Shown here: in pieces, positions 5,048 to 31,190 of the stretch
Layout: the number at the start of each line of letters is the position of its first letter
How positions within the stretch are numbered: the first letter of the stretch is position 1
From: Eubacteriales bacterium
Lineage (GTDB): Bacteria; Bacillota; Clostridia; Lachnospirales; Lachnospiraceae
DNA: 64,000 nucleotides
Reading direction: 5' to 3'
NCBI GenBank assembly: GCA_050874845.1
Contig: JBNMLM010000001.1
Span: 987 to 64,986, forward strand
Position numbers and translations under genes: made by a program
The notes under the pieces: model-generated
What the model saw: only the letters and a program-made list of their open reading frames with translations
Database searches by the model: none
Told to the model about the DNA's origin: nothing

Positions 5048-7391
5048 CCTTGTTCCCATATCTGTAAAGATCCACAGGAAGCAAAGCAGGATGTCCATTT
5101 TCTGCATTGTGCTGGCGGTATTTCTGGTTACTACAATTTTTGGCATGGCAGATATGTTCGTCCGCAGCCAGATTTTGCAGACCCAGCAGGAATATGGAAA
5201 CTGGCATATCGCCATCAAAAATATCAGCAACGAAGAAGCGTCAATTATCGCTTCACGCCCCGATGTTAAAGTATTTTCGCCGTATGGTGTACTTAATTAT
5301 CGTGGAGATTTAGGCTACACTTTAGGAGGAAAAAATGTAGCGATATGCGGTTGTGATAAAAGCTATATAACCGAAATCTGGGCTGGACAACTTGAAGATG
5401 GCGTTTTTCCACAGGCAAGTAATGAAGCGTTGGTGACTGAAAATGTAAAACAGATAATGGGTGTTGCGATTGGCGATTCCATTGCCGTCGAAACTCCTGA
5501 TGGTGATAAACTGAATTTTACCATATCTGGATTTATGAATAATACAGACTCGATCATGAGTGGCGACTCCTACGGCATTATTTTGAACATAGAGGATTAC
5601 TGCGCGATTTATCCGAATGTATCAGACGGGGAGCCGAATGATTACGGCATTATGTTTTTTACTCAATTTGCAAACACAAGAAATATACAAGGGAAAATTG
5701 CAGATTTGAAAGAACAATGCAATTTATCGAATGAACAAATATCTTCCAACAATAATCTGCTTGGCTTGCTTGGACAAAGCCGCGTCCCCTTTTTGTTACA
5801 AGTGTACTTGGCTGCGGCTGTATTGTTTGTATTGGTAATGTTAGCTGGCATTATGATGATTGCAAGCAGCCTAAATAGCAATGTGGCTCAGCGGACAGAG
5901 TTTTTCGGTCTTATGCGCTGTATCGGTGCAACGCCAAAACAGGTTATGCGCCTGGTACGGAAAGAGGCGCTTAGTTGGTGTCGTTTGGCGATCCCTGTGG
6001 GTATTTCCATCGGTGTAGTTGTCATTTGGGTCTTGTGTGCAGTTTTACGCTTCCTTGGCCCAGAATATTTCGAGGCTATGCCAACATTCGGTTTGAGCAT
6101 TCCGAGCATTTTGGCAGGAATCGTTGTGGGATTACTTACGGTTTTGTTAGCTGCTTATTCCCCGGCCAAAAAGGCGGCAAAGGTATCTCCTCTGGCAGCG
6201 GTTTCCGGTAACGCAAATACTTTGAAACCCGCCAGAAATGCCGCCAATACAAAGCTATTTAAGATTGATACTGCACTTGGGATTCATCATGCAAAAGCAA
6301 GCCGAAAAAACTTACTTTTGATGACAAGCTCATTTGCTCTTAGTATTATCCTTTTTTTATCGTTTTCCGTAACGGTCGAGTTTATGCAGCATACATTAAC
6401 GCCGCTTCATCCATGGACAGCAGATTTATCTATCATAAGCCCTGATAATTCTTGCGCCATTGACAAAACATTTTTAGAAGATTTGAAAGAAAATTCTATT
6501 GTGGATTTAGCGTATGGAAGAATGTTTGCCTACGAGGTTCCATCTGTAACAAATGGTATTGAAAAAAAGGTGGATTTGATCTCTTATGAGCAGCATCAAT
6601 TTGATTGGGCGAAAGACTATTTGTTAGAAGGTTCTCTTGAATCTGCACAAAACGATGTGGGAACTGGTTTAATTGTTTATGAGCAACAGAATACTATACA
6701 AATTGGTGATACTGTAACACTGAATATAAGCGGGCAAAAAAAAGAAATTCAAATCGTGGGAACACTATCTGACTGTCCATTTTATAGTGCTGCAGGTGTT
6801 GGAACAATTATCTGTTCAGAGGATACATTTAAGCAAATTACTAGTGAATCAAAGTACACGATTATTGATGTGCAGTTAACCAAAGAAGCAACCGATGAAG
6901 ATGTTTATGCTATCCATCAAATGGTGGATTCCACATTTACTTTCTCCGATGAACGTATGGGAAACAGCAGTACAATGGGAACATATTATTGTTTCTGGCT
7001 GTTCGTTTATGGATTTCTCGTTTTGATTGCATTGATTACAGTTTTTAACATAATAAACAGTATTGCTATGAGCGTCTCCTCAAGATCAAAGCAATATGGT
7101 TCTTTCCGCGCTATTGGGCTTAGTATAGGACAGCTTAGGAAAATGATAGTTGCAGAAGCCTTTACTTATACCATAATCGGCGGTATAGTTGGCACCATTT
7201 TGGGACTGTTAAGCAACAAGGTATTGTTCGAAATGTTGATCAGTTATAAATGGGGTGATACTTGGACAATTCCTTTGAAAGAATTGAGTATTATTCTTCT
7301 GATTGTTGTATTATCTGCGATTGTGGCGGTGTACGGTCCGATTAAGAGAATACACAATATGTCCATTGTTGACACAATCAGCGCACAGTGA
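5031..7391 (+). CDS. ABC transporter permease with two FtsX-type modules and two large external domains
   Basis: An N-terminal TM, a ~230-aa external domain and a TM bundle, then a second external domain and a second TM bundle. The start overlaps the ATPase gene. Confidence 0.85.
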   Translation: MKHYLDLVPISVKIHRKQSRMSIFCIVLAVFLVTTIFGMADMFVRSQILQTQQEYGNWHIAIKNISNEEASIIASRPDVKVFSPYGVLNYRGDLGYTLGGKNVAICGCDKSYITEIWAGQLEDGVFPQASNEALVTENVKQIMGVAIGDSIAVETPDGDKLNFTISGFMNNTDSIMSGDSYGIILNIEDYCAIYPNVSDGEPNDYGIMFFTQFANTRNIQGKIADLKEQCNLSNEQISSNNNLLGLLGQSRVPFLLQVYLAAAVLFVLVMLAGIMMIASSLNSNVAQRTEFFGLMRCIGATPKQVMRLVRKEALSWCRLAIPVGISIGVVVIWVLCAVLRFLGPEYFEAMPTFGLSIPSILAGIVVGLLTVLLAAYSPAKKAAKVSPLAAVSGNANTLKPARNAANTKLFKIDTALGIHHAKASRKNLLLMTSSFALSIILFLSFSVTVEFMQHTLTPLHPWTADLSIISPDNSCAIDKTFLEDLKENSIVDLAYGRMFAYEVPSVTNGIEKKVDLISYEQHQFDWAKDYLLEGSLESAQNDVGTGLIVYEQQNTIQIGDTVTLNISGQKKEIQIVGTLSDCPFYSAAGVGTIICSEDTFKQITSESKYTIIDVQLTKEATDEDVYAIHQMVDSTFTFSDERMGNSSTMGTYYCFWLFVYGFLVLIALITVFNIINSIAMSVSSRSKQYGSFRAIGLSIGQLRKMIVAEAFTYTIIGGIVGTILGLLSNKVLFEMLISYKWGDTWTIPLKELSIILLIVVLSAIVAVYGPIKRIHNMSIVDTISAQ

Positions 7392-10025: not shown

Positions 10026-10109
10026 GTCGATCCGTATCCTTGCTGGAAACGGAATGGTCTGATAAAACATAGATACAGCGCTGGAGTATATTTTTAGGAG
10101 GTGGCGGAA

Positions 10110-11330
10110 TTGGCAAAAAGAAAAAGAGCAATTCCACAATACGGTACAGTTACGCTTAACGGCATAGATTATTATAGAACGCGGGTTCAGAACGCAGATG
10201 GAAAACTGGTGGCCCTTTATGCGAGAACACCGGAAGAATTATATGATAAAGAGTTGGGAGCATTAGAGCAGATCGACAACGATACATTCTGTCGGAAATC
10301 CCCGACGGTTGCAGACTACTGTGAAAAATGGCTTTTGATGCAGTCGGTTCATGTGAGGGCAACCACGCTGATAGATTATACCTCAAAGGTCAGACGGCAC
10401 ATTATAAAAGAACTGGGACAGATGCGGATGGCAGATGTGACACTGGATGACATTCAGCTTGCACTTGTTCCTGTTTCCGAGAAGTCCGCTTCGGTATATA
10501 AGTCAGTGGTTATCCTGTATAAATCCATTTTCCGTGCAGCAAAGGAAAGTAAGATTATTGATAACAACCCAACGACTTACCTTACAGCCAAAGGTGGAGG
10601 CGTTCCGCAGAAGGACAAAGCTGCATTGACGGATGAACAGGCCGCCAGACTGCTGGATGCCATTCAGGGACTTCCGCCGTATGTATTTGTCATGTTAGGG
10701 CTGTATGCAGGATTGCGGCGAGAAGAAATTCTTGCCCTAAAATGGGATTCTGTATATCTGGATGTGGATTGCCCTTATTTAACGGTACGCAGGGCATGGC
10801 ACACGGAAAATAACAGACCGGTGATTCTGGATGAGCTGAAAACGAAAGCCGCGCATCGAAATATTCCGTTGCCGGTTTGCCTGGCGGACTGTCTGAAAGA
10901 GACAAAAGCTAATTCACAGTCAGAATATGTGGTGCCGAACCGGGATGGTAATCCGTTGTCCTATACACAGTTCAAGCGGCTCTGGCAGTACATTGTAACC
11001 CGAACAGTCAAGGAGCGTTTCTATTATCGCTACGAGGATGGAAAGCGTGTAAAGCACACGGTTACGCCAGTCCTCGGTGAAAAGGCAGCGCATAACGGCA
11101 AAGTGATTTACAGTTTGGATTTTGAAGTGACACCGCATCAGCTGCGGCATACATACATTACGAATCTGATTCATTCGTCCGTGGACCCGAAAACGGTTCA
11201 ATACCTGGCGGGGCATGAGAGTAGTAAAATTACGATGGATATTTACGCAAAGGTTAAATACAACAGACCGGATGAGCTGGTAAGAACAATGGGTGGTGCA
11301 TTTGCCCAGTGGGATGCAGCACAGGCATAA
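10110..11330 (+). CDS. Tyrosine-type site-specific integrase (copy 1)
   Basis: Catalytic signature GLRREE, HQLRHTY, GH and MDIYAK. A TTG start at 10110 sits 8 nt after AGGAGG and aligns with the N-terminus of copy 2. Confidence 0.9.
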   Translation: MAKRKRAIPQYGTVTLNGIDYYRTRVQNADGKLVALYARTPEELYDKELGALEQIDNDTFCRKSPTVADYCEKWLLMQSVHVRATTLIDYTSKVRRHIIKELGQMRMADVTLDDIQLALVPVSEKSASVYKSVVILYKSIFRAAKESKIIDNNPTTYLTAKGGGVPQKDKAALTDEQAARLLDAIQGLPPYVFVMLGLYAGLRREEILALKWDSVYLDVDCPYLTVRRAWHTENNRPVILDELKTKAAHRNIPLPVCLADCLKETKANSQSEYVVPNRDGNPLSYTQFKRLWQYIVTRTVKERFYYRYEDGKRVKHTVTPVLGEKAAHNGKVIYSLDFEVTPHQLRHTYITNLIHSSVDPKTVQYLAGHESSKITMDIYAKVKYNRPDELVRTMGGAFAQWDAAQA

Positions 11331-11481: not shown

Positions 11482-12723
11482 ATGGCTAAGAAAAAACAAA
11501 GCGTTCCAGAGTACGGAACGGTTACAAGAAAAGGAACACTGTATTACAGAACCAGAATTACAGATGCCGATGGAAAGCAGGTCAGCTTATATGCGACCAC
11601 CTGTGAAGAATTATATGAAAAGCAGTTGGAGGCTCGGAGACAGGTGGATGAGATCATCTTTCACCGAGAGCATCCAACGGTTGCCGAGTATTGTGAGAAA
11701 TGGCTGCTGATGCAGTCAGCAAAGGTGTCTACGGCTACTATAAAAGGATACAGACAGAATATGAAGAATTATGTCATTAGCTCTCTGGGAGATATGTATA
11801 TGGAGGAAGTGACTGCGGATGATATTCGTCTGGCGCTTGTTCCGCTGTCTCAAAAATCGAAAGGACTGTATGATACGGTAAATATGCTGATTAAGTGTGT
11901 GTTTTATTCGGCAGAGCGCAGTCAGCTGATAACCGATAATCCATGTGTGGGAATTTCAGCAAAGGGCGGAAAAGCATCGAAAAAGAAAGATGCCTTAACA
12001 GATCAACAGGTTGCTGTTCTGCTGGATACGGTGAAAGAGCTTCCGCCATATCTTTTTATTATGATTGGTTTGTATTCCGGCTTGCGTCGGGAAGAAATTC
12101 TTGCATTGCAATGGGATTGTGTATTCCTGGATGAATCCACACCATACATTTCCGTGAGACGTGCATGGCGCGCGGAGCATAACAGGCCGGTGATTTCTAC
12201 CGTTCTAAAGACAAAAGCAGCTAAAAGGGACATTCCCATTCCGAAGTGCCTGGTGGACTGCCTGCGGGAAGCAAAAGCCAATTCCGTATCGGAGTATGTG
12301 ATTGCGGACAGTGAGGGACAGCCGCTTTCCTATTCTCAGTTTACGAGAGTTTGGCAGTATGTAGTTGTTCGTTCTGCGAAAGAGAGAACTTACTATAAAT
12401 ATGTGAATGGACAGAGCATCAAATATACTGTCAAGCCGACATTAGGAACAATGCAGAGGAACAATCCCAAGATTCGCTATACCCTGAATTTCGATGTAAC
12501 ACCGCACTTGTTGCGGCATACCTACATCACGAATCTGCTCTATGCGGGCGTTGACCCTAAGACAGTTCAGTACCTGGCAGGGCATGAGAATAGTAAGACA
12601 ACTATGGACATTTACGCGAGGGTCAAGTATAATAAACCAGAGGAACTTTTCGAGGTAGTGAATGATGCTTTGAACCAGGAGAATTTCGATGAAAAATCAC
12701 CGATTTCCATGGTTAAGGAATAG
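11482..12723 (+). CDS. Tyrosine-type site-specific integrase (copy 2, paralog of copy 1)
   Basis: Full-length alignment to copy 1 at roughly 60% identity by eye. The same catalytic residues are present (GLRREE, HLLRHTY, MDIYAR). Confidence 0.9.
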   Translation: MAKKKQSVPEYGTVTRKGTLYYRTRITDADGKQVSLYATTCEELYEKQLEARRQVDEIIFHREHPTVAEYCEKWLLMQSAKVSTATIKGYRQNMKNYVISSLGDMYMEEVTADDIRLALVPLSQKSKGLYDTVNMLIKCVFYSAERSQLITDNPCVGISAKGGKASKKKDALTDQQVAVLLDTVKELPPYLFIMIGLYSGLRREEILALQWDCVFLDESTPYISVRRAWRAEHNRPVISTVLKTKAAKRDIPIPKCLVDCLREAKANSVSEYVIADSEGQPLSYSQFTRVWQYVVVRSAKERTYYKYVNGQSIKYTVKPTLGTMQRNNPKIRYTLNFDVTPHLLRHTYITNLLYAGVDPKTVQYLAGHENSKTTMDIYARVKYNKPEELFEVVNDALNQENFDEKSPISMVKE

Positions 12724-14308: not shown

Positions 14309-14358
14309 ATTGACCTCTTTTCCGTGCACAGGGCACTATAATTTTATAACAAGATGTT

Positions 14359-14650
14359 GGGGGCAAAACATACTAGCTTAACGTAAGAGTGTATAACGTA
14401 TTATATTTATGCATATCAGCTCCATTGCCCGAAGCAAGATGTTCTAAGAACTCTGATAAAGGTATTGTATACGTTCGCCACCGAAGCAAAGCATACATCC
14501 GTGTATGCATTGCTTCTAAAGCAGCCTCCGTGCTGCTTTTGGCTAGGGACTTAGCAGAGCTCTAAGAACATCTAAGCTTCTCCCCAAAGTCGTGATATGC
14601 ATAAATATAATACGTTATACACGCTAAGTTTATAGAGCATGTTTTGCCCC
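14359..14650 (+). repeat. Nested-palindrome intergenic element, copy 1 (MITE-like or structured RNA)
   Basis: About 90% identical to copies at 20798-21103 (inverted) and 30882-31176. It has terminal, subterminal and internal inverted repeats plus two central hairpins. Confidence 0.85.
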
Positions 14651-14673
14651 AAACATCATAACAAAGAAAATAA

Positions 14674-19411: not shown

Positions 19412-19417
19412 AAAACA

Positions 19418-19475
19418 GGTGTCAAAACAGGCTTGAAAATATACATCTTGGTATAAATCATCCTGTTTTGACACC
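19418..19475. terminator. Bidirectional terminator hairpin whose 14-bp arms match the terminal inverted repeat of the ~295-bp element
   Basis: GGTGTCAAAACAGG ... CCTGTTTTGACACC with a 30-nt loop, between the convergent GH2 and ddh genes. Confidence 0.6.
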
Positions 19476-19489
19476 ATAATTTTTAAGTC

Positions 19490-20797: not shown

Positions 20798-21103
20798 GAG
20801 TTTGGTGTCAAAACATGCCGTGTATACTTGGCTGTGTATAACGTATTATGTTTATGTATATCACGACTTTGGGTAGAAGCTTAGATGTTCTTAGAACTCT
20901 GCTAAATATCTAGCCAAAAGCAGCACGGATGCTGCTTTAGAAGCAATGCATACACGGATGTATGCTTTGCTTCGGTGGCGAACGTATAGAAGACCTTTAT
21001 CAGAGTTCTTAGAACATCTTGCTTCGGACAACGGAGCTGATATACATAAACATAATACGTTATACACTCACAGAATGGATTGGCATGTTTTGACACCAAA
21101 CTC
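20798..21103 (-). repeat. Nested-palindrome intergenic element, copy 2 (inverted relative to copies 1 and 3)
   Basis: Here the terminal IR extends to 22 bp (GAGTTTGGTGTCAAAACATGCC). It lies 40 nt upstream of the GGDEF gene start at 21143. Confidence 0.85.
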
Positions 21104-21142
21104 ATAAGCAAATGAATTGTGATATCAGATTGGAGAACCATT

Positions 21143-22321
21143 ATGTCATGGATTGAGAATATGAGCATAAATATATTTCCGATGGTTCTTGTTATGGTTG
21201 TTTTTGTCAGCAACAGATTCAAGTTTGGAAAGACAATCAGTGCAAGAGTATTCGACCTGATTATTATGTTTGATTTTTTCCTTATGCTTGTAGATATCGT
21301 AGGGATTGCTGCAACTGATGCCATGTTTAGCGGAATGTCTGAGAGTGTGTGGATTATAAATGTTGTCAGAATGATTCTGACTGTGCTGCTTACATGTACT
21401 TGGTTTATATATGTGTGCCTTAAAATATCAATGGATGGCGCGGACAGAAGAGTGTGGGTTGCAGTGTATGCGTCGTTATCGCTGATGGCAATAGTATGTT
21501 TTGTTGTGTTGCTTATACCACATAGTTACCTCGGTGCTTATGGACTTCAGAATGCCGGAAGGGGACTAAGGGTATGCTATCTCGGAATCAGTTATTATGG
21601 TATTACAATGTTCGCGTGCAGTGCGGCAGTAGCATTGTACGGGATTGTGCACGAAAAAGATAATGAGATTCGAAGACTGTGTATATACCTTATGCTGTTT
21701 AGTGTCCTGCCTATTTTTGGAGTGGTTCTTCAGAATATTAATCAGAACTTAAGAACCTCTTCACCGTGCCTTTCGCTGGCGGTTCTGTATGTGTACGTGA
21801 CAATGCAGAACAAGAAGGTCATAACGGACGGACTTACAGGGGTAAATAATAGGCGTGAGCTGGATGCTTACCTTGAGAGAAGGCTGAAGCAGCAGACAGA
21901 CTGGGGAATGCTCCTCATAGATGTGGATGATTTTAAGAAGATAAATGACACAATAGGACATAAAATAGGTGACGAGGCCTTGTGGCATGTCGCTGATATT
22001 CTTCGCACGGAATTCTCGGGGGATGGCTGCTTTGTGGCGAGATACGGAGGAGATGAATTTGTTATATGCGGCGAATGGAAGAACAGGGCTGAGTTAGAGC
22101 AGTGCATGACATCAATTCATAAGAGAGTGGACAGCTTTAATAAGGAAAAGGAAAGGAATTATAAGCTTTCCCTGAGCGTTGGAGCGGCATTGTGGAGCGA
22201 ATGTGCAGACAGTGAAGCTTCTATAATTGAACTCGCCGATAAGAGAATGTATAAGCAGAAACAGATACATAAGGAACGGAGGAACGCCGGTAGTGAGCAA
22301 TATAGTATATATTCAGGCTAA
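21143..22321 (+). CDS. Membrane diguanylate cyclase (multi-TM N-domain + GGDEF)
   Basis: RYGGDEFVI active site and about 6-7 predicted TM helices. GGAGA RBS 7 nt before the ATG at 21143. Confidence 0.85.
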   Translation: MSWIENMSINIFPMVLVMVVFVSNRFKFGKTISARVFDLIIMFDFFLMLVDIVGIAATDAMFSGMSESVWIINVVRMILTVLLTCTWFIYVCLKISMDGADRRVWVAVYASLSLMAIVCFVVLLIPHSYLGAYGLQNAGRGLRVCYLGISYYGITMFACSAAVALYGIVHEKDNEIRRLCIYLMLFSVLPIFGVVLQNINQNLRTSSPCLSLAVLYVYVTMQNKKVITDGLTGVNNRRELDAYLERRLKQQTDWGMLLIDVDDFKKINDTIGHKIGDEALWHVADILRTEFSGDGCFVARYGGDEFVICGEWKNRAELEQCMTSIHKRVDSFNKEKERNYKLSLSVGAALWSECADSEASIIELADKRMYKQKQIHKERRNAGSEQYSIYSG

Positions 22322-23465
22322 CATATTCCCTATAGCAGCGCTGCTCGTGGTTATGAATAATCTTAAGCGCGATATGTCATTTTCATGGAGACGCCATTGC
22401 CTTGAAACTATAATGAAGCTCACGGTGTGTATAATGATATTTAATGTAGTGTGCTGGTGCCTGAACGGAAGGGAGGGGAACTTAGCCAAGGGCATACTGT
22501 GGGTCGGAAATACAGCATATTATGTATTTATGCTGTATATGGCATTTCTATGGTTTCTGTATGTGTATGATAAAGTGACGAACGGAAATGGACAGATGGG
22601 AATATCCATGTTTGTCAAGGCTATTCCACTTGTTATAAGTCTTGTCATATTGGCGGCAGGAGTGGTAAGACCGCTGATATTTTATATAGACGCTGAAAAT
22701 TTATATCAGCGTGGGCCACTTCATATTTTAAGTACGGTTGTTGCGGCAGGGTATATTTTTGTGGCATGTATTCTGGCATTTGTGGGGATGCTTAGGACGC
22801 AGGAACGCGAAGAGAGAAGACAGTATGGATATCTGGTGCTTTTTGGTGTATTCCCTCTGGTTGGTGGTATTGTTCAGATGTTCCTGTATGGTACGGATCT
22901 TCTATGGCCTATGACGAGTGTGGCACTTGTGATGGTGTACATTAATATCCAGCAGCAGAACGTCAGCCGCGACAGCATGACAGGGCTTAATAACAGGCGA
23001 AGGCTTGACCAGTATATAGCTGCGCTTTCCAAAGAACATATTAAGGAGCCGTTATGCTACAGTATAATGGACATTGATTATTTCAAGGAGATTAATGATA
23101 ACTTTGGACATCAGACAGGTGATAAGGTGCTGTGTCTTGTGGCGAATGCACTTAAAAAAGTGTATGGAAATACAAGAAGCTTTATTGCAAGGTATGGCGG
23201 GGACGAATTTGTGATAATATCACGCGGATTTGACAGTGAGCAGGCAGAGCATTATCGCGGAAGGCTTGAGAGGATGATTAAGGATATAGAATGTGAGGAG
23301 TTAGAGAATGGGGGACTGGAGATAAGTATGGGCTGCGCGCATTACGGCGAAGAAGGCTGTAAGCAGGTTCGTGATATGATGGAACTTGCGGATATGCGTA
23401 TGTATGATATAAAAAATGAGCACCATAATAACAACGCTGCTTTAATGTGGCAGAAAAGAGGATAG
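22293..23465 (+). CDS. Membrane diguanylate cyclase, tandem paralog (start codon uncertain)
   Basis: RYGGDEFVI motif and the same TM + GGDEF architecture. A GTG at 22293 follows GGAGG and aligns TM1 (NIFPIAALL) with NIFPMVLVM of the upstream paralog. Confidence 0.75.
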   Translation: MSNIVYIQANIFPIAALLVVMNNLKRDMSFSWRRHCLETIMKLTVCIMIFNVVCWCLNGREGNLAKGILWVGNTAYYVFMLYMAFLWFLYVYDKVTNGNGQMGISMFVKAIPLVISLVILAAGVVRPLIFYIDAENLYQRGPLHILSTVVAAGYIFVACILAFVGMLRTQEREERRQYGYLVLFGVFPLVGGIVQMFLYGTDLLWPMTSVALVMVYINIQQQNVSRDSMTGLNNRRRLDQYIAALSKEHIKEPLCYSIMDIDYFKEINDNFGHQTGDKVLCLVANALKKVYGNTRSFIARYGGDEFVIISRGFDSEQAEHYRGRLERMIKDIECEELENGGLEISMGCAHYGEEGCKQVRDMMELADMRMYDIKNEHHNNNAALMWQKRG

Positions 23466-23467
23466 AA

Positions 23468-25279
23468 ATGGCAGAGGAATTACTTTTCAGAAAAGATGTA
23501 AAGAAGGAACTTACATGGGACTTATCACTTATTTATAAGGATGAGGAGGCTCTTATGGCTGATGCGGCGAGGATGGAGAGCCTTACGGCGCAGCTTGAGA
23601 AAGATTATAAGGGCAGGCTTGACAGTGCGGACAGAATAAATGGCTGTCTTGACAAGCTGCGTGAATTATATGGAATAGCAACGCTGGTCGGAAACTATTG
23701 TGAGCTTGCAACGTCAGTGGATTATTATGATACACATAATATGGAGCTTGCAGGAAGGATGAACCGCAAGATTTCAGAGTGCATGAGTACATTAAGCTTT
23801 ATAGACAGTGAATTATCCACTAAGAGCGATGAACTAATCAACGAAGCTGCACAGGCTTCAAAGGAGAACGCCAATTACTTAAAAGAAGTGCTCAGGGGAA
23901 AGCCATATCTTTTAAGCCCTGAGACGGAGAAGGTGTTAAAGGCTCTGTCACAGACAACAGGAGCACCTTATGAGATATACAATACAGCCAAGCTTGCGGA
24001 TATGAAATTCTCGGATTTTGAGGTTGACGGAAAGAAGTATCCTCTTGGATACTCCCTCTTTGAGGATGATTATGAGTATGATGAGAGAACAGATGTAAGA
24101 AGAGCTGCATTTGCCGCCTTTTCAGCAAAGCTCCGTGACTATGAGAATGTAACTGCGGCAGCCTACAACACGGCTGTGCAGTATGAAAAGACAATGTCCG
24201 ATTTAAGAGGCTTTGACAATGTATTTGACAGCCTGCTTTTTGGACAGCATGTTGATAGTACGCTTTATAACAGACAGATTGACCTCATTATGGATAAGCT
24301 TGCACCGCACATGAGAAAATATGTCAAGCTTCTTGGAAAAGTTCATAAGCTTGATAAGGTTACTTATGCGGATTTGCATCTTCCTGTCGATCCGGAGTAT
24401 TCACCTAAGCTCACAATCGAGGAATCCAAGGACTATGTAACAAAGGGACTTTCCATCCTTGGCGAGGACTATGTGAACATGGTGGAGACAGCCTACAGAG
24501 AACGCTGGTTTGATTTTGCTCAGAATCAGGGAAAATCGACAGGTGGTTTCTGTGCAAGTCCTTACGGAAAGAATTCATTTATACTTCTTAGCTGGAACGG
24601 AAGAATGTCCGATGTGTTTACTATAGCGCATGAGCTTGGACATGCAGGTCATTTTAAGGCATGCAATGCTGCCCAGTCAATTTTTGATACGGATGTGTCC
24701 TCATACTTTGTTGAGAGCCCATCCACTATGAACGAACTGCTGCTTGGACATTATCTGTTAAAGACGAGTGATGATAAGCGTTTCCGCCGCTGGGTACTTT
24801 CTAACATGATTGGAAATACCTATTATCACAACTTTGTAACACATCTTCTTGAGGCGGCATATCAGAGAGAGGTATATCGCAAGGTTGAGGATGGCGCGAG
24901 TGTTCAGGCTGAGACGTTGAGCGCGATAATGAAGGATGTGCTCACTAGGTTCTGGGGTGATGCGGTTGAGCTCACCGATGGAGCAGAGCTCACATGGATG
25001 AGACAGCCTCATTATTATATGGGACTTTATTCATACACCTACAGCGCAGGACTTACGATTGCAACGCAGGTATGTAAGAGAATAGAGAATGAAGGACAGA
25101 CAGCGGTGGATGACTGGAAGAGAGTTCTTAAGGCAGGCGGAACAAAGACTCCTGTTGAGCTTGCAGCCATGGCTGGAATTGACATAACAACAGATGCGCC
25201 TTTGCTTGATACGATTGAGACTATAGGTGCGATGATCGATGAGATATGTGAGCTCACGGATGAGCTTGAGGAGAAGTAG
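23468..25279 (+). CDS. pepF: Oligoendopeptidase F (M3B metallopeptidase)
   Basis: HELGHAGH zinc motif; length and conserved blocks are typical of PepF. Confidence 0.9.
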   Translation: MAEELLFRKDVKKELTWDLSLIYKDEEALMADAARMESLTAQLEKDYKGRLDSADRINGCLDKLRELYGIATLVGNYCELATSVDYYDTHNMELAGRMNRKISECMSTLSFIDSELSTKSDELINEAAQASKENANYLKEVLRGKPYLLSPETEKVLKALSQTTGAPYEIYNTAKLADMKFSDFEVDGKKYPLGYSLFEDDYEYDERTDVRRAAFAAFSAKLRDYENVTAAAYNTAVQYEKTMSDLRGFDNVFDSLLFGQHVDSTLYNRQIDLIMDKLAPHMRKYVKLLGKVHKLDKVTYADLHLPVDPEYSPKLTIEESKDYVTKGLSILGEDYVNMVETAYRERWFDFAQNQGKSTGGFCASPYGKNSFILLSWNGRMSDVFTIAHELGHAGHFKACNAAQSIFDTDVSSYFVESPSTMNELLLGHYLLKTSDDKRFRRWVLSNMIGNTYYHNFVTHLLEAAYQREVYRKVEDGASVQAETLSAIMKDVLTRFWGDAVELTDGAELTWMRQPHYYMGLYSYTYSAGLTIATQVCKRIENEGQTAVDDWKRVLKAGGTKTPVELAAMAGIDITTDAPLLDTIETIGAMIDEICELTDELEEK

Positions 25280-25341
25280 GACGGTGAAATCACGCTACTG
25301 TCCGGATGAATATAATTTAGTTACGAAAGGAGGCGTGCGTT

Positions 25342-25974
25342 GTGGATAAGAAGCAGCTTGCGCTTGATATAATTGAAAGACTGAAAAAAGAATATCCGGA
25401 TGCCGGATGTTCGTTGGAATACAGCGAAGCATGGAAGCTTCTTGTCAGCGTGCGCCTTGCGGCTCAGTGCACCGATGCGAGGGTGAATGTGGTCGTTCAG
25501 GATTTGTATGCACATTACCCGGATGTAAATGCGCTTGCGGATGCTCCGGTTGAGGAGATTGAGAAGCTGGTAAGACCCTGCGGTCTTGGCAACAGCAAGG
25601 CAAGGGATATAAGTGCCTGTATGAGAATGCTGCGCGATAAGTACAATGGTCAGGTTCCGGATGATTTCGACAAGCTCATGGAGCTTCCGGGAGTCGGAAG
25701 AAAGAGCGCGAACCTTATTATGGGCGATGTGTTCGGCAAGCCGGCGATAGTCACCGACACACATTGTATACGTCTGGTAAACCGTATGGGGCTTGTGGAC
25801 GGAATAAAGGAGCCGAAGAAGGTTGAGATGGAGCTGTGGAGGATAATACCTCCTGAGGAGGGCAATGATTTCTGCCACAGGCTTGTAGAGCACGGAAGGG
25901 CGGTGTGCACGGCGCGGACGAAGCCGTACTGCGATAAGTGCTGTCTTAAAGACATTTGTGCGAAAAATATATAA
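25342..25974 (+). CDS. nth: Endonuclease III (DNA glycosylase/AP lyase)
   Basis: HhH-GPD motif LPGVGRKSANLI and a C-terminal 4Fe-4S cysteine cluster CTARTKPYCDKCCLKDIC. GTG start. Confidence 0.9.
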   Translation: MDKKQLALDIIERLKKEYPDAGCSLEYSEAWKLLVSVRLAAQCTDARVNVVVQDLYAHYPDVNALADAPVEEIEKLVRPCGLGNSKARDISACMRMLRDKYNGQVPDDFDKLMELPGVGRKSANLIMGDVFGKPAIVTDTHCIRLVNRMGLVDGIKEPKKVEMELWRIIPPEEGNDFCHRLVEHGRAVCTARTKPYCDKCCLKDICAKNI

Positions 25975-25994
25975 TAGCTTTAAGAGGTGGATAT

Positions 25995-27413
25995 ATGTCA
26001 AGTGTGGAATCGCGCGGCATGCCGGAGCAGAAGCCGCACGCGGGCGGAAAGGATTTCTCAAAAGGAAAAATATGGAGTAATATCATGGTTCAGGCTGTGC
26101 CACTTATACTGGCACAGCTTGTGCAGCTTTTATACAATGTTGTTGATAGAATATATATAGGACACCTTCCGGGGGCAGACAGTCTTGCTCTTACCGGTGT
26201 TGGGCTTGCATTTCCGCTCACAACGCTTATCGCTGCATTCACGAATCTGTTCGGGATGGGCGGCGCGCCACTGTTTTCCATAGAGCGCGGTGCAGGGAAT
26301 GATGAGAAAGCGGAAAAGATACTTGGAAATACCTTTTCAATGCTTTTTGCAAGTTCATTTATAATATTTATCCTGTGCTATGCTTTCAGAAAACCTGTGC
26401 TGTACCTTTTTGGCGCGAGCGATGCCTCGTATGTATATGCGAACGAATATTTAAAAATATATCTTTTGGGCACGACATTCACGATGCTTGCGACAGGACT
26501 CAACGGATTTATAAATGCTCAGGGGTTTCCGCGGACAGGAATGATGACAACGCTCATAGGAGCTGTGCTTAACCTTATTTTAGACCCATTGTTTATTTTT
26601 GTATTTCACATGGGAGTCAGTGGGGCGGCACTTGCAACAATTATAAGTCAGGGCGTATCTGCAGTGTGGGTTCTGAGATTCCTTATAAGCAGAAGAGGAA
26701 GGGCTGCATATCATATAAGGCTGTCCTGCCTTAGACCAGATTTAAAGCTTGTGGGGGATATAACCGCACTCGGAATGGCTGGATTTATCATGCAGGGAAC
26801 GAACTGTCTGGTGCAGGTGGTCTGCAACGCGACGCTCAAGGTGTTTGGCGGAGATTTATATGTCGGGATAATGACGGTCATAAATTCGGTGCGTGAGATA
26901 ATGTCGCTTCCGGTCAGTGGACTTACCAGCGGTTCACAGCCGGTGTTAGGATATAACTACGGAGCGAAAAAATATGACAGGGTGAGAAGTGGAATTAAAT
27001 TCACATCGGCTATTGGAATAGGTTACACAGCACTTGCATGGATTATAGTTCTTCTTATTCCGCAGCAGTTGATGGGAATATTTACAGATGATTCCCAGAC
27101 AATAATATATGGAGCAGAGGCGCTTAAGACATACTTCTTTGGCTTTGTATTCATGTCATTTATGTTTACCGGGCAGTCCACATTTACCGCGCTTGGCTAT
27201 TCAAAGCATGCGATATTCTTTTCACTTTTAAGAAAAGTGATTATTGTAACACCTCTTGCGATAATTTTGCCGCGAATAGGTTTTGGCGTGATGGGGGTAT
27301 TTCTCTCAGAGCCGATATCCAATGTGATTGGAGGACTTGCAAGCTTCTTAACCATGTATTTCACGGTATATAGGAAGCTGAAACCGCAGAATACAGATTT
27401 GCCGGAGAGATAA
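25995..27413 (+). CDS. MATE-family efflux transporter
   Basis: 12-TM profile with a MatE-type N-terminus (QAVPLILAQLVQLLYNVVDRIYIG). AGAGGTGG RBS before the ATG at 25995. Confidence 0.85.
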   Translation: MSSVESRGMPEQKPHAGGKDFSKGKIWSNIMVQAVPLILAQLVQLLYNVVDRIYIGHLPGADSLALTGVGLAFPLTTLIAAFTNLFGMGGAPLFSIERGAGNDEKAEKILGNTFSMLFASSFIIFILCYAFRKPVLYLFGASDASYVYANEYLKIYLLGTTFTMLATGLNGFINAQGFPRTGMMTTLIGAVLNLILDPLFIFVFHMGVSGAALATIISQGVSAVWVLRFLISRRGRAAYHIRLSCLRPDLKLVGDITALGMAGFIMQGTNCLVQVVCNATLKVFGGDLYVGIMTVINSVREIMSLPVSGLTSGSQPVLGYNYGAKKYDRVRSGIKFTSAIGIGYTALAWIIVLLIPQQLMGIFTDDSQTIIYGAEALKTYFFGFVFMSFMFTGQSTFTALGYSKHAIFFSLLRKVIIVTPLAIILPRIGFGVMGVFLSEPISNVIGGLASFLTMYFTVYRKLKPQNTDLPER

Positions 27414-27486
27414 CGGACTAATTGAAAACAGCTGCTTATTTGGAAATTTGAGTTTAGCAATTACCTGAAAGCAGTTTATCAAAAAA

Positions 27487-27527
27487 AGGTGAATGTAGCA
27501 CTGGAAAGTGACCACATTCACCTTTTT
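27487..27527. terminator. Bidirectional terminator between MATE and pyk
   Basis: AGGTGAATGT/ACATTCACCT stem flanked by an A-run and a T-run. Confidence 0.6.
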
Positions 27528-27530
27528 AGG

Positions 27531-28940
27531 TTATTCTACATCCACAACGCGGATCATGTTGGTTGCGCCTGCAATTCTGAGAGGGAAACCTGCAACAATG
27601 ACAACGCGGTTGCCGGATTTGATGACACCGGCGGCCTTGCACTTACTGATTACCTCATTGATAAGAGCTTCGCCATCCTCCTGCTCTGTGATAAGAACAG
27701 GTGTAACTCCCCACATGAGAGACGTCTCACGGCACACGCGCTCGTTGGTTGAGCAGCCGATAATATCTATGTTAGGACGGAAACCGGACACCTTGCGGAT
27801 TGTGCTTCCGCTTAAGGAAACCGGAATAATAGCATCAGCATTGATTATGCTTGCGATAGAACATGCAGCACATGCGATTGAGGAGGCTAAGTTACTTCCG
27901 TTGTATGTTATCTCGAATTTACCGGTAGTTGTAGTCTTTTCAATCTCACGGCAGATTCTGCTCATAGTCTTAACTGCTTCTACAGGGTAGTCGCCGGCAG
28001 CACTCTCACCTGAGAGCATTACAGCTGATGTCTGGTCAAAGATTGCGTTCGCAACATCATTGACCTCTGCACGGGTAGGACGAGGATTATGAGTCATGCT
28101 CTCAAGCATCTGGGTTGCTACGATTACGAACTTACCGGACTTAAGGCACTTGTGTATCATATCCTTCTGTACAACAGGAACCTTTTCAAAAGGAATTTCA
28201 ACACCCATATCGCCTCTTGCTACCATAATTCCGTCTGCGGCATCGATAATTGCGTCGAGATTCTCAACACCTTCCTGACTCTCAATCTTGGCAATGAGCT
28301 TGGAGGTATTGTTATGCTCCTTCTGAAGTCTGCGGACCTCAAGAACATCCTCTGCGCAACGGACGAAACTGAGTGCGAAGAAGTCAAATCCGGTCTTCAT
28401 GGCAAATTCTAAATCCTTCCTGTCAACATCGCTGAGGAATGGAAGTGATAAATGAACACCCGGAACATTGATAGCCTTGCGGTCTGATATTACGCCGCCA
28501 TTGATGACACGGCATACAATATCTGTATCATCAATCTTTTCAACCTTGAGTTCAATAAGACCATCATTTACAAGTATGCTTGTACCTATCTGAACATCAT
28601 TGATAAGATTTTTATATGAAATTGAACCTATAGTATTATTTCCAAGAATTTCTTTTGTGGTGAGTGTAAATAAGTCACCATCGTTAACGGTCACCTTGCC
28701 ACCTTCAAAGAGACGGAAACGAATCTCCGGACCTTTTGAATCGAAGAGAGTAGCTACCGGAAGCTTAAGCTCATCACGAACCTTCACAACGCGGTTATAT
28801 CTGCCTAAGTGTTCCTCATAGCTTCCGTGTGAAAAGTTAAAACGTGCAACATTCATGCCGTTTTCCATCATTTTTCTGAGAGTCTCCTCATTATCACATG
28901 CCGGACCCATGGTACACACTAATCTTGTCTTCTTTAACAT
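27531..28940 (-). CDS. pyk: Pyruvate kinase
   Basis: MLKKTRLVCTMGPA, NFSHG and MVARGDMGVEIP motifs. GGAGG lies 11 nt upstream of the ATG at 28940. Confidence 0.92.
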   Translation of the reverse strand: MLKKTRLVCTMGPACDNEETLRKMMENGMNVARFNFSHGSYEEHLGRYNRVVKVRDELKLPVATLFDSKGPEIRFRLFEGGKVTVNDGDLFTLTTKEILGNNTIGSISYKNLINDVQIGTSILVNDGLIELKVEKIDDTDIVCRVINGGVISDRKAINVPGVHLSLPFLSDVDRKDLEFAMKTGFDFFALSFVRCAEDVLEVRRLQKEHNNTSKLIAKIESQEGVENLDAIIDAADGIMVARGDMGVEIPFEKVPVVQKDMIHKCLKSGKFVIVATQMLESMTHNPRPTRAEVNDVANAIFDQTSAVMLSGESAAGDYPVEAVKTMSRICREIEKTTTTGKFEITYNGSNLASSIACAACSIASIINADAIIPVSLSGSTIRKVSGFRPNIDIIGCSTNERVCRETSLMWGVTPVLITEQEDGEALINEVISKCKAAGVIKSGNRVVIVAGFPLRIAGATNMIRVVDVE

Positions 28941-29031
28941 TAAAAATAAATCCTCCTTATTAAACTGTCTCAATTATTATAACATAACCAATACTAAAAT
29001 GAAAGCGCTTTCACGCTTCTTTACTTTATCT

Positions 29032-30696
29032 TTACCTTACTGCCTCGTGGTTTATTTTTTTCATAGCGAATTTCTCACTGTACATCATCTTGTCCGCACG
29101 TCTTAGCGTATCTCCGATATCATAGTCCTCATCTGCGTTGTACATTTCGTAGCCACATGCAATATGAAGAGGAAAGCTGTCCGGATGTGCGGCATTATAA
29201 TCTGCGAGCAGCTTATTAAAGCTTTTGATACAGTCACGGCACTTAGCAATAGATATGCCATGTAACAGCGCACAGAATTCATCACCTCCCATTCTGTAAC
29301 AGTCACCGAAACTGCCGAAGGCTTTTTTAATCAGACCGGCACTCTCGACAATATATGAGTCACCATGGTCATGTCCGAAGTTGTCATTGCACTGCTTGAG
29401 GTTGTTAAGGTCAAACATGACAATTATATGTCCATCGGGCTTGAACTTGCTGTGCCCGATATATTTTGCATAGGCAGTTCTGTTAAAAAGTCCTGTGAGC
29501 TGATCGTGGTAAGCCATTTCCTCAAAGGCTTTTGCCTGACTTCCGATCTCCATAAGTGCCTTGGCTTCTTTGAGTGAGGTCATTCCAAGTGCAAGTATAT
29601 AGAATAAAAGACATGTGATTCCAAGGAATGACGGAAAGGCTCCATTTGTCAGGTAGTAGGCAACGATATCGACTAACAGTCCCACAAGGCATGCAAATGA
29701 ACATATAAATGAAAGCTTTATTTTAGGGTTCCATCCGTAACAGGTTACTTCTCTGTAAAACATAATGAACACTACCGGGATGTTAGAGAGCATCACGGCA
29801 TGGATAAGCCAGAGATTATCACGCATATCTGTTTTTGCACTTATCTGCAGCACTACAATTAGGATAAACACTATAATGTTAAATATACAAGGCACATTCC
29901 AGAGAAAGCTGTCTTTTTCCGTAAATGAGTTTCTCAAAAAACTTATAAAGGGAATACTCATCATCAACAGGCAGAAGTAGGAGGTGTACGATATCAATAC
30001 GGGGTTTTTTATAATTGCAGCCGTATAGTCAAGATCCATAAACTTCCATACACCGATGAGGATAGAAAAGAACCCTATCATAATCAGACTCTTATCAACA
30101 TGCCTGTTTCTTAAGTTCACAAGTGTGAAAAATATGAAGAATAAACCCGCAAGCACCGCGATGAAACATGTGAAATATATGATAATGTTAGGCGCCAGAA
30201 GGTGCTCATATATCTTGAATTGTGAACCAAGATAAAAAATAGGATGGGTGTTAACCATGCTTTTATAAAGCGGTGTCAGGACAATTCTAACTGTCTTTCC
30301 TACATCAGCGGGGCGAACAGGAATCACACACCAGTTAGAACCGGTGGTTTTTATAAATGAACTGTCATCCGGTGAGAGCGAATATATAAGCTCAGAGTCC
30401 ATATATACTTCGACTTTTTCATGTTTTATATAAAAGACAAGGTTAGAGCTGTTAGCCGGAAGAGCCGGCAGCGACAGCGTCAGCTCATTATACATCTTTA
30501 AAGGGGCATTATCGTCAGCTATTGTCTTGAATGTATCTGTTGTAATGATGCGGTATGAATCGGTAGGTCTGGTCGCAAATATGTTTATATGAAAATTTGA
30601 GCCGATATATGTGAGCATGCATACCAGAGCAAGGAGACAAGTAGCGTAAGCAGTGTATATGATATATTTTATTTTTTCATTATTTTTTTCCTTCAA
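29032..30696 (-). CDS. Diguanylate cyclase with an N-terminal external domain + 7TM (7TMR-DISM-like) + GGDEF
   Basis: RMGGDEFCA active site and 7 TM helices after a ~170-aa external domain. TTG start after GGAGG. Confidence 0.8.
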   Translation of the reverse strand: MKEKNNEKIKYIIYTAYATCLLALVCMLTYIGSNFHINIFATRPTDSYRIITTDTFKTIADDNAPLKMYNELTLSLPALPANSSNLVFYIKHEKVEVYMDSELIYSLSPDDSSFIKTTGSNWCVIPVRPADVGKTVRIVLTPLYKSMVNTHPIFYLGSQFKIYEHLLAPNIIIYFTCFIAVLAGLFFIFFTLVNLRNRHVDKSLIMIGFFSILIGVWKFMDLDYTAAIIKNPVLISYTSYFCLLMMSIPFISFLRNSFTEKDSFLWNVPCIFNIIVFILIVVLQISAKTDMRDNLWLIHAVMLSNIPVVFIMFYREVTCYGWNPKIKLSFICSFACLVGLLVDIVAYYLTNGAFPSFLGITCLLFYILALGMTSLKEAKALMEIGSQAKAFEEMAYHDQLTGLFNRTAYAKYIGHSKFKPDGHIIVMFDLNNLKQCNDNFGHDHGDSYIVESAGLIKKAFGSFGDCYRMGGDEFCALLHGISIAKCRDCIKSFNKLLADYNAAHPDSFPLHIACGYEMYNADEDYDIGDTLRRADKMMYSEKFAMKKINHEAVR

Positions 30697-30881
30697 TGAA
30701 ACCTCCTATGGATATATTTCTTATCGTCTGCTATTGGCAAAGTTAATGAAAATCACCGGCTGAGCCTTAGCGTACCTTGATTTAAACATACAAAATAATT
30801 ATATCATTGAATAGGCAGAAATAAAATATACTTTTTATACGTGGGCGGTTTTCGGGTTATATATTGGCATTACATGATGTG

Positions 30882-31176
30882 GGGGTCAAAACATGCCAAT
30901 TTAATGTACAAGTGTATAACGTATTATATTTATACATATCAGCTCCATTGTCCGAAGCAAGATGTTCTAAGAACTCTGATAAAGGTATTCTATACGTCCG
31001 CCACCGAAGCAAAGCATACATCCGTGTATGCATTGCTTCTAAAGCAGCATCCGTGCTGCTTTTGGCTAGGTATATAACAGAGTTCTAAGAACATCTAAGC
31101 TTCTGACAAAAGTCGTGATATGCATAAATATAATACGTTATACACAGCTAGGTATATATAGCATGTTTTGACACCC
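30882..31176 (+). repeat. Nested-palindrome intergenic element, copy 3
   Basis: Same architecture as copies 1 and 2. It lies in the divergent region between the GGDEF gene (start 30696) and the ABC ATPase (start 31288). Confidence 0.85.
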
Positions 31177-31190
31177 GAATCTTAACACGC

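Follow-up and report, generated by a model that had tools for sequence, protein, structure and literature searches.

The question that this locus raises is what kind of element could account for three long palindromes, each of about 300 bp, that lie between genes in a 64-kb stretch of DNA from a Lachnospiraceae bacterium (contig JBNMLM010000001.1; hereafter the window, 64,000 nucleotides in all), and that the original prediction was unable to assign to any known repeat or RNA family. Our analysis indicates that the centre of each copy is an RNA motif that is already catalogued, TwoAYGGAY (Rfam family RF01731), and that this core is carried inside a transposon of the type known as miniature inverted-repeat transposable elements (MITEs), a reading to which we give a probability of roughly 0.7. 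The whole element has the size, the terminal inverted repeats (TIRs), the target-site duplication (TSD) and the copy number of a MITE, and by comparison of sequences it has dispersed over dozens of sites within a group of Lachnospiraceae of the human gut.

Scanning the window with the covariance models of Rfam 15 returned exactly three matches above threshold, one per copy and all of them to RF01731, and a scan of copy 1 in E-value mode detected no family besides this one. In each copy the central 164 nt align with the complete model (positions 1–168 of 168) at 102.9–115.1 bits, the gathering score being 43 bits, and at E = 3e-17 to 6e-20; the RNA is read from the minus strand in copies 1 and 3 and from the plus strand in copy 2. 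A match to an existing Rfam family is what the original prediction had itself named as refuting its view of an unassignable repeat, and this view is overturned: the ATCCGT/ACGGAT loops it had described correspond, on the opposite strand, to the AYGGAY loops, and its internal inverted repeat of ~25 bp is the P1 stem of the RF01731 model. Eleven further full copies from related genomes score as RF01731 at 93–126 bits, and within the 144 kb of related loci scanned no TwoAYGGAY match was found beyond these repeat arms. When 24 full copies are aligned, the loop of hairpin 1 reads ACGGAU, ACGGAG, AUGGAU or AUGGAG and that of hairpin 2 A-N-GGA-Y, the GGA being unchanged in both, and P1 is seen as a 23-pair helix (columns 79–104 / 210–235) in which 98.2% of cells are paired.

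TwoAYGGAY was described by Weinberg et al. (2010, Genome Biol 11:R31) on sequences of human-gut metagenomes, Clostridiales and gamma-proteobacteria; these authors rated it as 'probably an RNA, not cis-regulatory' and described its P1 as 'often very large', and it has since been proposed to be a CsrA-binding small RNA (sRNA) (Gardner and Eldai 2015, PMC4333381). The family has been in Rfam since 2010 without a function, and a 2025 preprint terms it 'relatively unexplored'. In the literature on TwoAYGGAY we found no description of it as a mobile element or as transposon cargo, and a literature search for the TIR sequence found nothing; the RNA motif is thus already catalogued, and its packaging in a mobile element appears to be undescribed. 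The Psychromonas ingrahamii members of the published alignment (TwoAYGGAY.sto, supplement of PMC2864571) are also multi-copy and are conserved well past the motif, including a second downstream repeat, GUAACACGCCGUCAGGGCGGAAGACCAACAA; TwoAYGGAY may be repeat-borne in gamma-proteobacteria too.

The evidence for transposition comes from the ends of the element. With the TIR taken as the boundary of each element, the 7 or 8 bases on either side were compared at 40 non-redundant sites, and mismatched flank pairs served as a control. Perfect flanking direct repeats are observed at 12 of the 40 sites (nine of 7 bp and three of 8 bp), the control rate being 0.32% (P ~ 6e-21), and six more sites are one mismatch off (five 6/7 and one 7/8). 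These duplications are AT-rich (TTATTAT, ATTAAAT, ATGGTAT and others). Copy 1 of the window is flanked on both sides by ATAACAA, a TSD that recurs at the orthologous locus L135; one close relative alone could be retrieved for this site, with an AraC that is 96% identical, and there the copy 1 site is occupied and has the same TSD. Looking up the exact proteins encoded by the genes flanking copy 1, for strain-level empty sites, gave no record, and their homologues corresponded to one occupied site and two non-syntenic ones. At another orthologous intergenic site the element is full in L046 and in L047, the latter with an assembly gap of Ns inside the copy, while L016 keeps only the outermost TIR hairpin (a 'mini' form) within an identical TSD and the more distant L034 is without the element. 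The resemblance to MITEs that had been suggested from the window is therefore borne out by the 20-bp TIRs, the TSDs of 7–8 bp, the many copies in few related genomes, the deletion derivatives and one element-free orthologous site.

Judged from the terminal repeats, the three copies of the window extend slightly beyond the coordinates first given for them. That they are about 90% alike and intergenic is upheld by a repeat search of the window, which yields a direct repeat at 90% (14337–14622 / 30860–31145) and inverted pairs of 302 nt at 90% (20804–21105 / 30874–31175) and of 236 nt at 94% (14387–14622 / 20834–21069), by a three-way alignment with a mean column identity of 88%, and by the gene calls. 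Copy 1 (305 bp) is flanked by genes for an AraC-family regulator and an MIF-like protein, copy 2 (306 bp) by a diaminopimelate dehydrogenase gene and a GGDEF gene, and copy 3 (306 bp) by a GGDEF gene and an ABC ATPase gene. The open reading frames (ORFs) that overlap the copies (72, 140, 78 and 74 aa) are mechanical calls running across the repeats, and the elements have no coding capacity. The four nested layers proposed earlier are all present, namely a terminal repeat, which is in fact of 20 bp, a subterminal inverted repeat of 30 bp, the internal repeat and two central hairpins. Over the family the order from the outside in is a 7–8-bp TSD, the 20-bp TIR (consensus GATKYKGGKGT-CAAAACATG; the 20-bp GATKYKGGKGTCAAAACATG is at both ends in 54 elements), a variable spacer of ~16 nt, the almost invariant 30-bp subterminal repeat TGTATAACGTATTATATTTATGCATATCAC, P1 and the two A-Y-G-G-A-Y hairpins. 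Upon folding, each copy results in a single long hairpin (−149.5 and −164.2 kcal/mol; z ~ −15 to −16 in respect to dinucleotide shuffles, none of 100 being equally stable), the RNA-sense strand being ~12 kcal/mol more stable than the antisense strand in both copies tested. The features of the three copies are as follows.

14353–14657, RNA sense on the minus strand: copy 1, whole element of 305 bp between its TIR ends; hairpin of −149.5 kcal/mol, z = −14.9
14346–14352, no strand: copy 1, left TSD, ATAACAA, a perfect 7/7 direct repeat with 14658–14664
14658–14664, no strand: copy 1, right TSD, ATAACAA
14638–14657, minus strand: copy 1, TIR, 5' on the RNA strand, GATGTTTGGGGCAAAACATG
14353–14372, minus strand: copy 1, TIR, 3' arm
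14592–14621, minus strand: copy 1, 30-bp subterminal repeat, 5' arm, TGTATAACGTATTATATTTATGCATATCAC, nearly invariant in the 24 aligned copies
14390–14420, minus strand: copy 1, subterminal repeat, 3' arm
14424–14587, minus strand: copy 1, TwoAYGGAY core (P1 and two hairpins), RF01731 at 102.9 bits, model 1–168 of 168
14518–14539, minus strand: copy 1, hairpin 1, loop ACGGAG
14483–14516, minus strand: copy 1, hairpin 2, AUACACGGAUGU, 11/12 against the CsrA consensus
20798–21103, RNA sense on the plus strand: copy 2, whole element of 306 bp, no recognisable TSD; position common to UBA10756 contig DNFT01000041
20798–20817, plus strand: copy 2, TIR, 5' arm, GAGTTTGGTGTCAAAACATG
21084–21103, plus strand: copy 2, TIR, 3' arm
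20835–20864, plus strand: copy 2, subterminal repeat, 5' arm
21036–21066, plus strand: copy 2, subterminal repeat, 3' arm
20869–21032, plus strand: copy 2, TwoAYGGAY core, RF01731 at 115.1 bits, E = 6e-20
20917–20938, plus strand: copy 2, hairpin 1, loop ACGGAU
20940–20973, plus strand: copy 2, hairpin 2, AUACACGGAUGU
30876–31181, RNA sense on the minus strand: copy 3, whole element of 306 bp, TIRs from different subfamilies, no TSD; interior inverted in respect to the UBA10756 orthologue
31162–31181, minus strand: copy 3, TIR, 5' arm, GATTCGGGTGTCAAAACATG
30876–30895, minus strand: copy 3, TIR, 3' arm (reverse complement GATGTGGGGGTCAAAACATG)
31115–31144, minus strand: copy 3, subterminal repeat, 5' arm
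30913–30943, minus strand: copy 3, subterminal repeat, 3' arm
30947–31110, minus strand: copy 3, TwoAYGGAY core, RF01731 at 113.1 bits, E = 1.7e-19
31041–31062, minus strand: copy 3, hairpin 1, loop ACGGAU
31006–31039, minus strand: copy 3, hairpin 2, AUACACGGAUGU
19417–19478, no strand: tentative fourth copy, a degenerate 'mini' relic; hairpin GGTGTCAAAACAGG...CCTGTTTTGACACC, TIR-like match with 4 mismatches

The last of these hairpins sits exactly between two convergent genes, coding for a glycoside hydrolase of family GH2 (stop at 19411) and for diaminopimelate dehydrogenase (stop at 19490), and has the TIR core in common with the element family; possibly this is a decayed 'mini' copy that now serves as a bidirectional terminator.

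A scan for the subterminal repeat over one genome per GTDB species evidenced at least 92 loci, with about 8 assemblies among the matches listed: Eubacterium sp. UBA10756, an uncultured Eubacterium metagenome-assembled genome (MAG), two Hadza Lachnospiraceae MAGs, UMGS754, UMGS782, Firmicutes bacterium CAG:882 and a Clostridia MAG. Within single MAGs there are at least 19 loci in CAUCXT01 and at least 34 in UBA10756. Many matches lie at contig ends, which indicates that the repeat breaks assemblies; indeed, a large share of the contigs of the fragmented MAG UBA10756 start or stop inside the repeat (loci L006–L097), and the element family is a major source of assembly breaks in this clade. Positions 20886–30978 of the window are 87–94% identical to UBA10756 contig DNFT01000041, which starts within copy 2 and ends within copy 3. 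This comparison makes the window a close relative of UBA10756, and since copies 2 and 3 are at the same positions in both, the two insertions must be older than the split of the two species. Among phage collections the sole matches are five scaffolds deposited as 'UNVERIFIED Bacteriophage sp.' from a Mexican faecal virome (L001–L005; MT837401, MT839276, MT836394, MT837682, MT836195). Their flanks are 97–99.5% identical to chromosomal contigs of a Eubacterium MAG (L066, L097), so that a phage origin is rejected in favour of what looks like bacterial DNA carried over in the virome preparation. Scanning IMG/VR for element ends gave two MITE ends and two chance matches only, and a plasmid origin was set aside after BLAST searches of PLSDB with the element and with its end returned no match.

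Copies at other sites show how such a palindrome changes after insertion. 'Short' forms (~165–190 bp) keep both outer layers and have lost the two hairpins, the junction lying in an 11-bp sequence, GTTCTTAGAAC, that is found in both P1 arms. The full copy L066 and the short copy L001 adjoin flanks that are 99.5% identical, and the change between full and short is therefore recent. Metagenome contigs also bear forms of 97 nt and 68 nt and asymmetric forms of 180 nt, with junctions at other microhomologies, and short or mini forms occupy 15 of the 40 sites, some of them with intact TSDs. This variety points to deletion within an unstable palindrome rather than to nested insertion. We have considered whether the core could be a separate mobile unit that made an 11-bp duplication on insertion, and rejected it, as GTTCTTAGAAC is an intrinsic near-palindrome of P1, many junctions use other microhomologies and TwoAYGGAY was never seen outside the arms in the 144 kb scanned. 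Small duplications specific to one copy are seen as well (TATACAC repeated in the right subterminal arm of L094, 185–495; an extra ACAC in hairpin 2 of L037, 7426–7735). At two orthologous sites the interior has been turned around: L009 (3204–3509) and L018 (4057–4361) agree in their flanks and in the idiosyncratic bases at the very ends of the TIRs, and between them the interior, spacers included, is reverse-complemented, and the same pattern of conserved flanks and outermost TIR bases around a flipped interior relates copy 3 of the window (30876–31181) to L038 (2143–2286; UBA10756). These flips are arm-to-arm inversions ('flip-flop') of a long palindrome. In L066 the spacers are discordant with the core, which places the crossover deeper in the arms. 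Among near-identical metagenome samples a given site is always in one orientation, and flipping is thus an evolutionary event and not a rapid phase variation.

We have investigated whether the conservation of the element acts on RNA or on DNA using the 24 full copies. In these, 97.9% of pair cells are paired and 25 of 102 pairs have changed on both sides, a number that is reached by 0 of 500 shuffles and that is far over slid controls; hairpin 1 covaries at 5 of its 8 pairs. An excess of G-U pairs is found only in the inner region (22 versus 2, one pair supplying 16 of them). The outer stems have no such excess and hence look like DNA palindromes and not like strand-selected RNA stems. In our reading the outer layers are DNA-level transposon ends and only the core shows signs of structural constraint.

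As to which protein could recognise the core, CsrA is the best candidate by loop match. The CsrA consensus obtained by SELEX (systematic evolution of ligands by exponential enrichment) is RUACARGGAUGU, with the GGA in a hairpin loop (PMC4347634). Hairpin 2 of the element reads AUACA-N-GGAUGU and matches this consensus at 12 of 12 positions in half of the 24 copies and at 11 of 12 in the three window copies; the loop of hairpin 1 is A-CGGA-U, and the two GGA motifs are spaced by 29 nt. Flagellin genes are present in carriers L076 (UBA10756), L123 and L126, and in the latter two, which are element-bearing metagenome contigs, a CsrA-family gene (PF02599, 54.6 bits, the cutoff being 27) lies directly upstream of the flagellin gene:

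L126 12596–12871 and L123 about 5500–5730, upstream of flagellin: CsrA-family protein of 91 aa with a lysine-rich C-terminal tail

Just upstream of this gene in L126, on the opposite strand, is a tyrosine-recombinase-like ORF of 198 aa (11910–12506). The flagellin leader at these loci folds into a stem of 10 bp capped by an A-CGGA-U loop, and AUGGAG comes after it at the Shine-Dalgarno site; these leader hexamers are identical to the loop hexamers of the element. The hag leader of Bacillus subtilis is a two-site CsrA operator with an arrangement like that of the flagellin leader found here. The idea that the paired loops are recognition sites for a protein is upheld in part, with CsrA as the best candidate, and the DNA hairpin-binding transposase that had been put forward for this role is not favoured. 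Judging from these motifs, binding of CsrA by the element hairpins is possible, although we would put it below even odds. A further step would be to see in the element a mobile decoy for CsrA, in which a MITE has taken up or developed an imitation of the CsrA operator of the flagellin leader and has scattered dozens of copies over the genome; on the whole, we regard this as improbable.

Copies 2 and 3 also adjoin genes for GGDEF diguanylate cyclases (21119–22321 and 29032–30696), lying directly upstream of them, and Eubacterium sp. UBA10756 has kept the two positions. In proteobacteria, GGDEF genes are known to come under CsrA/Rsm control (PMC6849547). We have considered cis-regulation of the GGDEF genes by the element and rejected it: orientation is random over the 24 copies and the sister species has copy 3 the other way round, for which reasons the proximity is treated as a coincidence.

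A number of observations weigh against a transposon that carries a working RNA, and they are gathered here. Regarding mobility, copies 2 and 3 have no recognisable TSD in the flank comparison, which fits their age; an empty site resolved to the nucleotide, with the target present once, was not obtained, L034 being too diverged at the junction; and the search for an autonomous element bounded by these TIRs gave none, whether in the window, in ~1 Mb of loci, in a metagenome scan that excluded the MITE or in the viral scan (IMG/VR). Regarding the RNA, G-U pairs in the outer stems (29) are not significantly commoner than A-C pairs (21); the downstream gene is on the same strand in 10 of 24 copies, so far as crude gene calls allow, and orientation looks random; and a simple promoter scan inside the element gave nothing convincing, with no promoter or terminator signature. 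Orthologous copies are ~97–99% alike, in comparison with 92–96% for their flanks, and L008 and L032 differ by a multi-nucleotide variant that is common to other copies: this suggests gene conversion between copies, which the conservation may partly reflect. Finally, no CsrA gene was found in the 64-kb window or in the sampled UBA10756 fragments, those seen being on related metagenome contigs.

The search for a transposase partner has been pursued along several lines. Considering TIR pairs up to 6 kb apart, the sole candidate, of 2.1 kb (L033 5448–7599), was rejected as it encodes a glycoside hydrolase-like protein and not a transposase. Scanning metagenomes for TIRs without the subterminal repeat next to them gave only deletion derivatives, truncated ends and chance matches, and the repeated segments of 0.6–3.5 kb among the loci are orthologous regions only. 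Aligned with one gap, the end of IS1216, GGTTCTGTTGCAAAGTTTT (verified in plasmid pTEF1), and the variant end of the element, GGTTCGGGTGTCAAAACATG, agree at ~12 of 18 positions, a weak similarity that could be due to chance, and a tblastn search of the sampled loci with the IS6 (IS1216) transposase gave no match. The IS6 family (IS1216/IS257/IS26), which makes an 8-bp duplication, resembles the present element weakly in its end and is similar in the length of the duplication, but differs in that IS6 elements transpose via cointegrates; as a pointer to the transposase, the IS6-like ends would be only a lead.

Among the alternatives, the one that survives best is that of a selfish DNA palindrome, i.e. 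a MITE without any RNA function, in which conservation results from recent common descent, gene conversion and DNA-level needs (binding of a transposase or host factor, cruciform formation) and the GGA loops are incidental. Much of what has been described is compatible with it: the failure to find an internal promoter, the random orientation, the flips in situ, the outer stems without a G-U excess, the sign of gene conversion, and the persistence of hairpin-less short and mini forms, some with intact TSDs, at 15 of 40 sites. However, it leaves aside that TwoAYGGAY is an Rfam-curated family with covariation support in both gamma-proteobacteria and Clostridia, that hairpin 1 has undergone compensatory changes around an invariant GGA, and that hairpin 2 has the exact 12-nt consensus in half of the copies while a host flagellin leader displays the same loop. 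We regard a purely selfish palindrome as rather unlikely.

A second alternative would be a chromosomal family of sRNA genes, CsrB-like sponges for CsrA, spread by ordinary duplication and recombination, the outer palindromes being an extended P1 or a terminator. The very large P1 reported by Weinberg et al., the published CsrA-sponge hypothesis and the conserved positions of copies 2 and 3 between species would agree with this; perfect TSDs exactly outside 20-bp TIRs at 12 of 40 sites, copies at unrelated intergenic sites in both orientations, mini and short forms that keep the termini and the lack of a promoter or terminator signature in a simple scan do not, and make such a gene family very unlikely. 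A site-specific invertible switch (inverton), in which the inverted repeats are recombinase sites and the flip alters the expression of a neighbouring gene, such as the GGDEF genes by copies 2 and 3, would explain why the interior is flipped in two orthologous comparisons, the breakpoints falling in the CAAAACATG portion of the TIR, and why GGDEF genes come directly downstream of two window copies out of three. Nevertheless, each site has the same orientation in near-identical metagenome samples, no promoter was found inside the element and no recombinase gene nearby, and the crossover in L066 is at another depth of the palindrome, as expected of homologous recombination between arms, so that an inverton is highly improbable. 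Lastly, a REP/BIME-like (repetitive extragenic palindrome or bacterial interspersed mosaic element) or IS200/IS605-type element moved by a Y1 (HUH) transposase that recognises DNA hairpins, which the original prediction had put forward as a Y1/RAYT-type partner (RAYT, REP-associated tyrosine transposase) and which the hairpins with a common loop sequence and the palindromic intergenic repeats would recall, is the least likely of all, as TSDs are present although to our knowledge HUH/Y1 elements make none, the ends are long TIRs and not subterminal hairpins beside a cleavage tetranucleotide, no REP-type short palindrome with a conserved tetranucleotide is found, and the window and the copies and loci examined showed no Y1 gene.

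Taking the MITE-borne TwoAYGGAY core as the preferred reading, a life cycle can be proposed. A DDE-type transposase acting in trans would bind the ends and insert the element in AT-rich intergenic DNA via a staggered cut of 7–8 bp. Inserted copies would be long-lived, as may be judged from copies 2 and 3, which are at the same positions in another species. Recombination from arm to arm would flip the interior, and deletions at microhomologies or direct repeats would give rise to the 'short' forms (~165–190 bp, devoid of the AYGGAY hairpins) and the 'mini' forms (~45–70 bp, TIR hairpin only). Transcription in the sense direction would produce a hairpin of ~300 nt showing two GGA loops 29 nt apart, in mimicry of the flagellin-leader CsrA sites, and the copies could then titrate CsrA or bring neighbouring transcripts under its control. 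If the decoy proposal were true, sense transcripts would titrate CsrA or place neighbouring genes under CsrA control, interior flips would switch copies between a GGA-displaying strand and an inert one, and the orphan TwoAYGGAY would gain a function, as the first antagonist RNA of the CsrB type in Firmicutes and one that, moreover, is transposable.

With TwoAYGGAY as transposon-like cargo in gut Lachnospiraceae, the family has to be read in another way, as its copy number and conservation would partly reflect mobility and not host selection alone. The published CsrA-sponge idea can now be put to a direct test in a host clade that has both flagellin and csrA and in which a flagellin leader has the same loop, and dozens of natural sense, antisense, short and mini variants are ready controls. 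Such repeats break MAG assemblies and inflate the counts of 'RNA families' in metagenome association studies.

Elsewhere in the window, a 300-nt direct repeat (55029–55328 / 55500–55799; 86%, 471 nt apart) lies within one ORF of 794 aa (53584–55968) and presumably is an internal repeat of a protein domain. The adjacent same-strand ORFs 10101–11330 (409 aa) and 11482–12723 (413 aa), which have 155 nt in common at 72% (10610–10764 / 11979–12133), are likely tandem paralogues.

Comparison with known systems places the element in respect to four of them. REP/BIME sequences associated with RAYT have in common with it only that they are palindromic intergenic repeats; REPs are of 20–40 nt, have no TSD, bear a conserved 5' tetranucleotide and are linked to Y1, none of which applies here. 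With RF01731 as described, the element has in common the full-length match, the two AYGGAY hairpins, the long closing P1, the occurrence in Clostridia and the human gut and the multiple copies; it differs by two extra inverted-repeat layers outside the model, bounded by TSDs, and the members in the stored part of the Weinberg alignment (Psychromonas and marine sequences) are without these arms. Bacterial MITEs, such as Correia/NEMIS in Neisseria, ERIC/IRU in enterobacteria, RUP in Streptococcus pneumoniae and bcr1 in the Bacillus cereus group, are of 100–400 bp. Like these, the element is non-coding, has TIRs and a TSD, occurs in many intergenic copies, would form a hairpin over its whole length when transcribed and has deletion variants; unlike these, it has another sequence, a TSD of 7–8 bp, three nested repeat layers and a centre that is an RNA motif conserved across phyla, and no parent insertion sequence was found for it. 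The CsrB, CsrC and RsmX/Y/Z sRNAs act by sequestering CsrA/RsmA. The likeness to them and to the B. subtilis hag leader lies in the GGA in hairpin loops, the SELEX match of hairpin 2, the two sites 29 nt apart and the host flagellin leader with the same loop and a GGA at the Shine-Dalgarno site, whereas the element differs from these sRNAs in having two sites per molecule, no dedicated promoter or terminator seen, and dozens of dispersed mobile copies. The element works like the MITEs of the Correia, ERIC or RUP type at the DNA level, and at the RNA level it may work like a decoy of the CsrB type.

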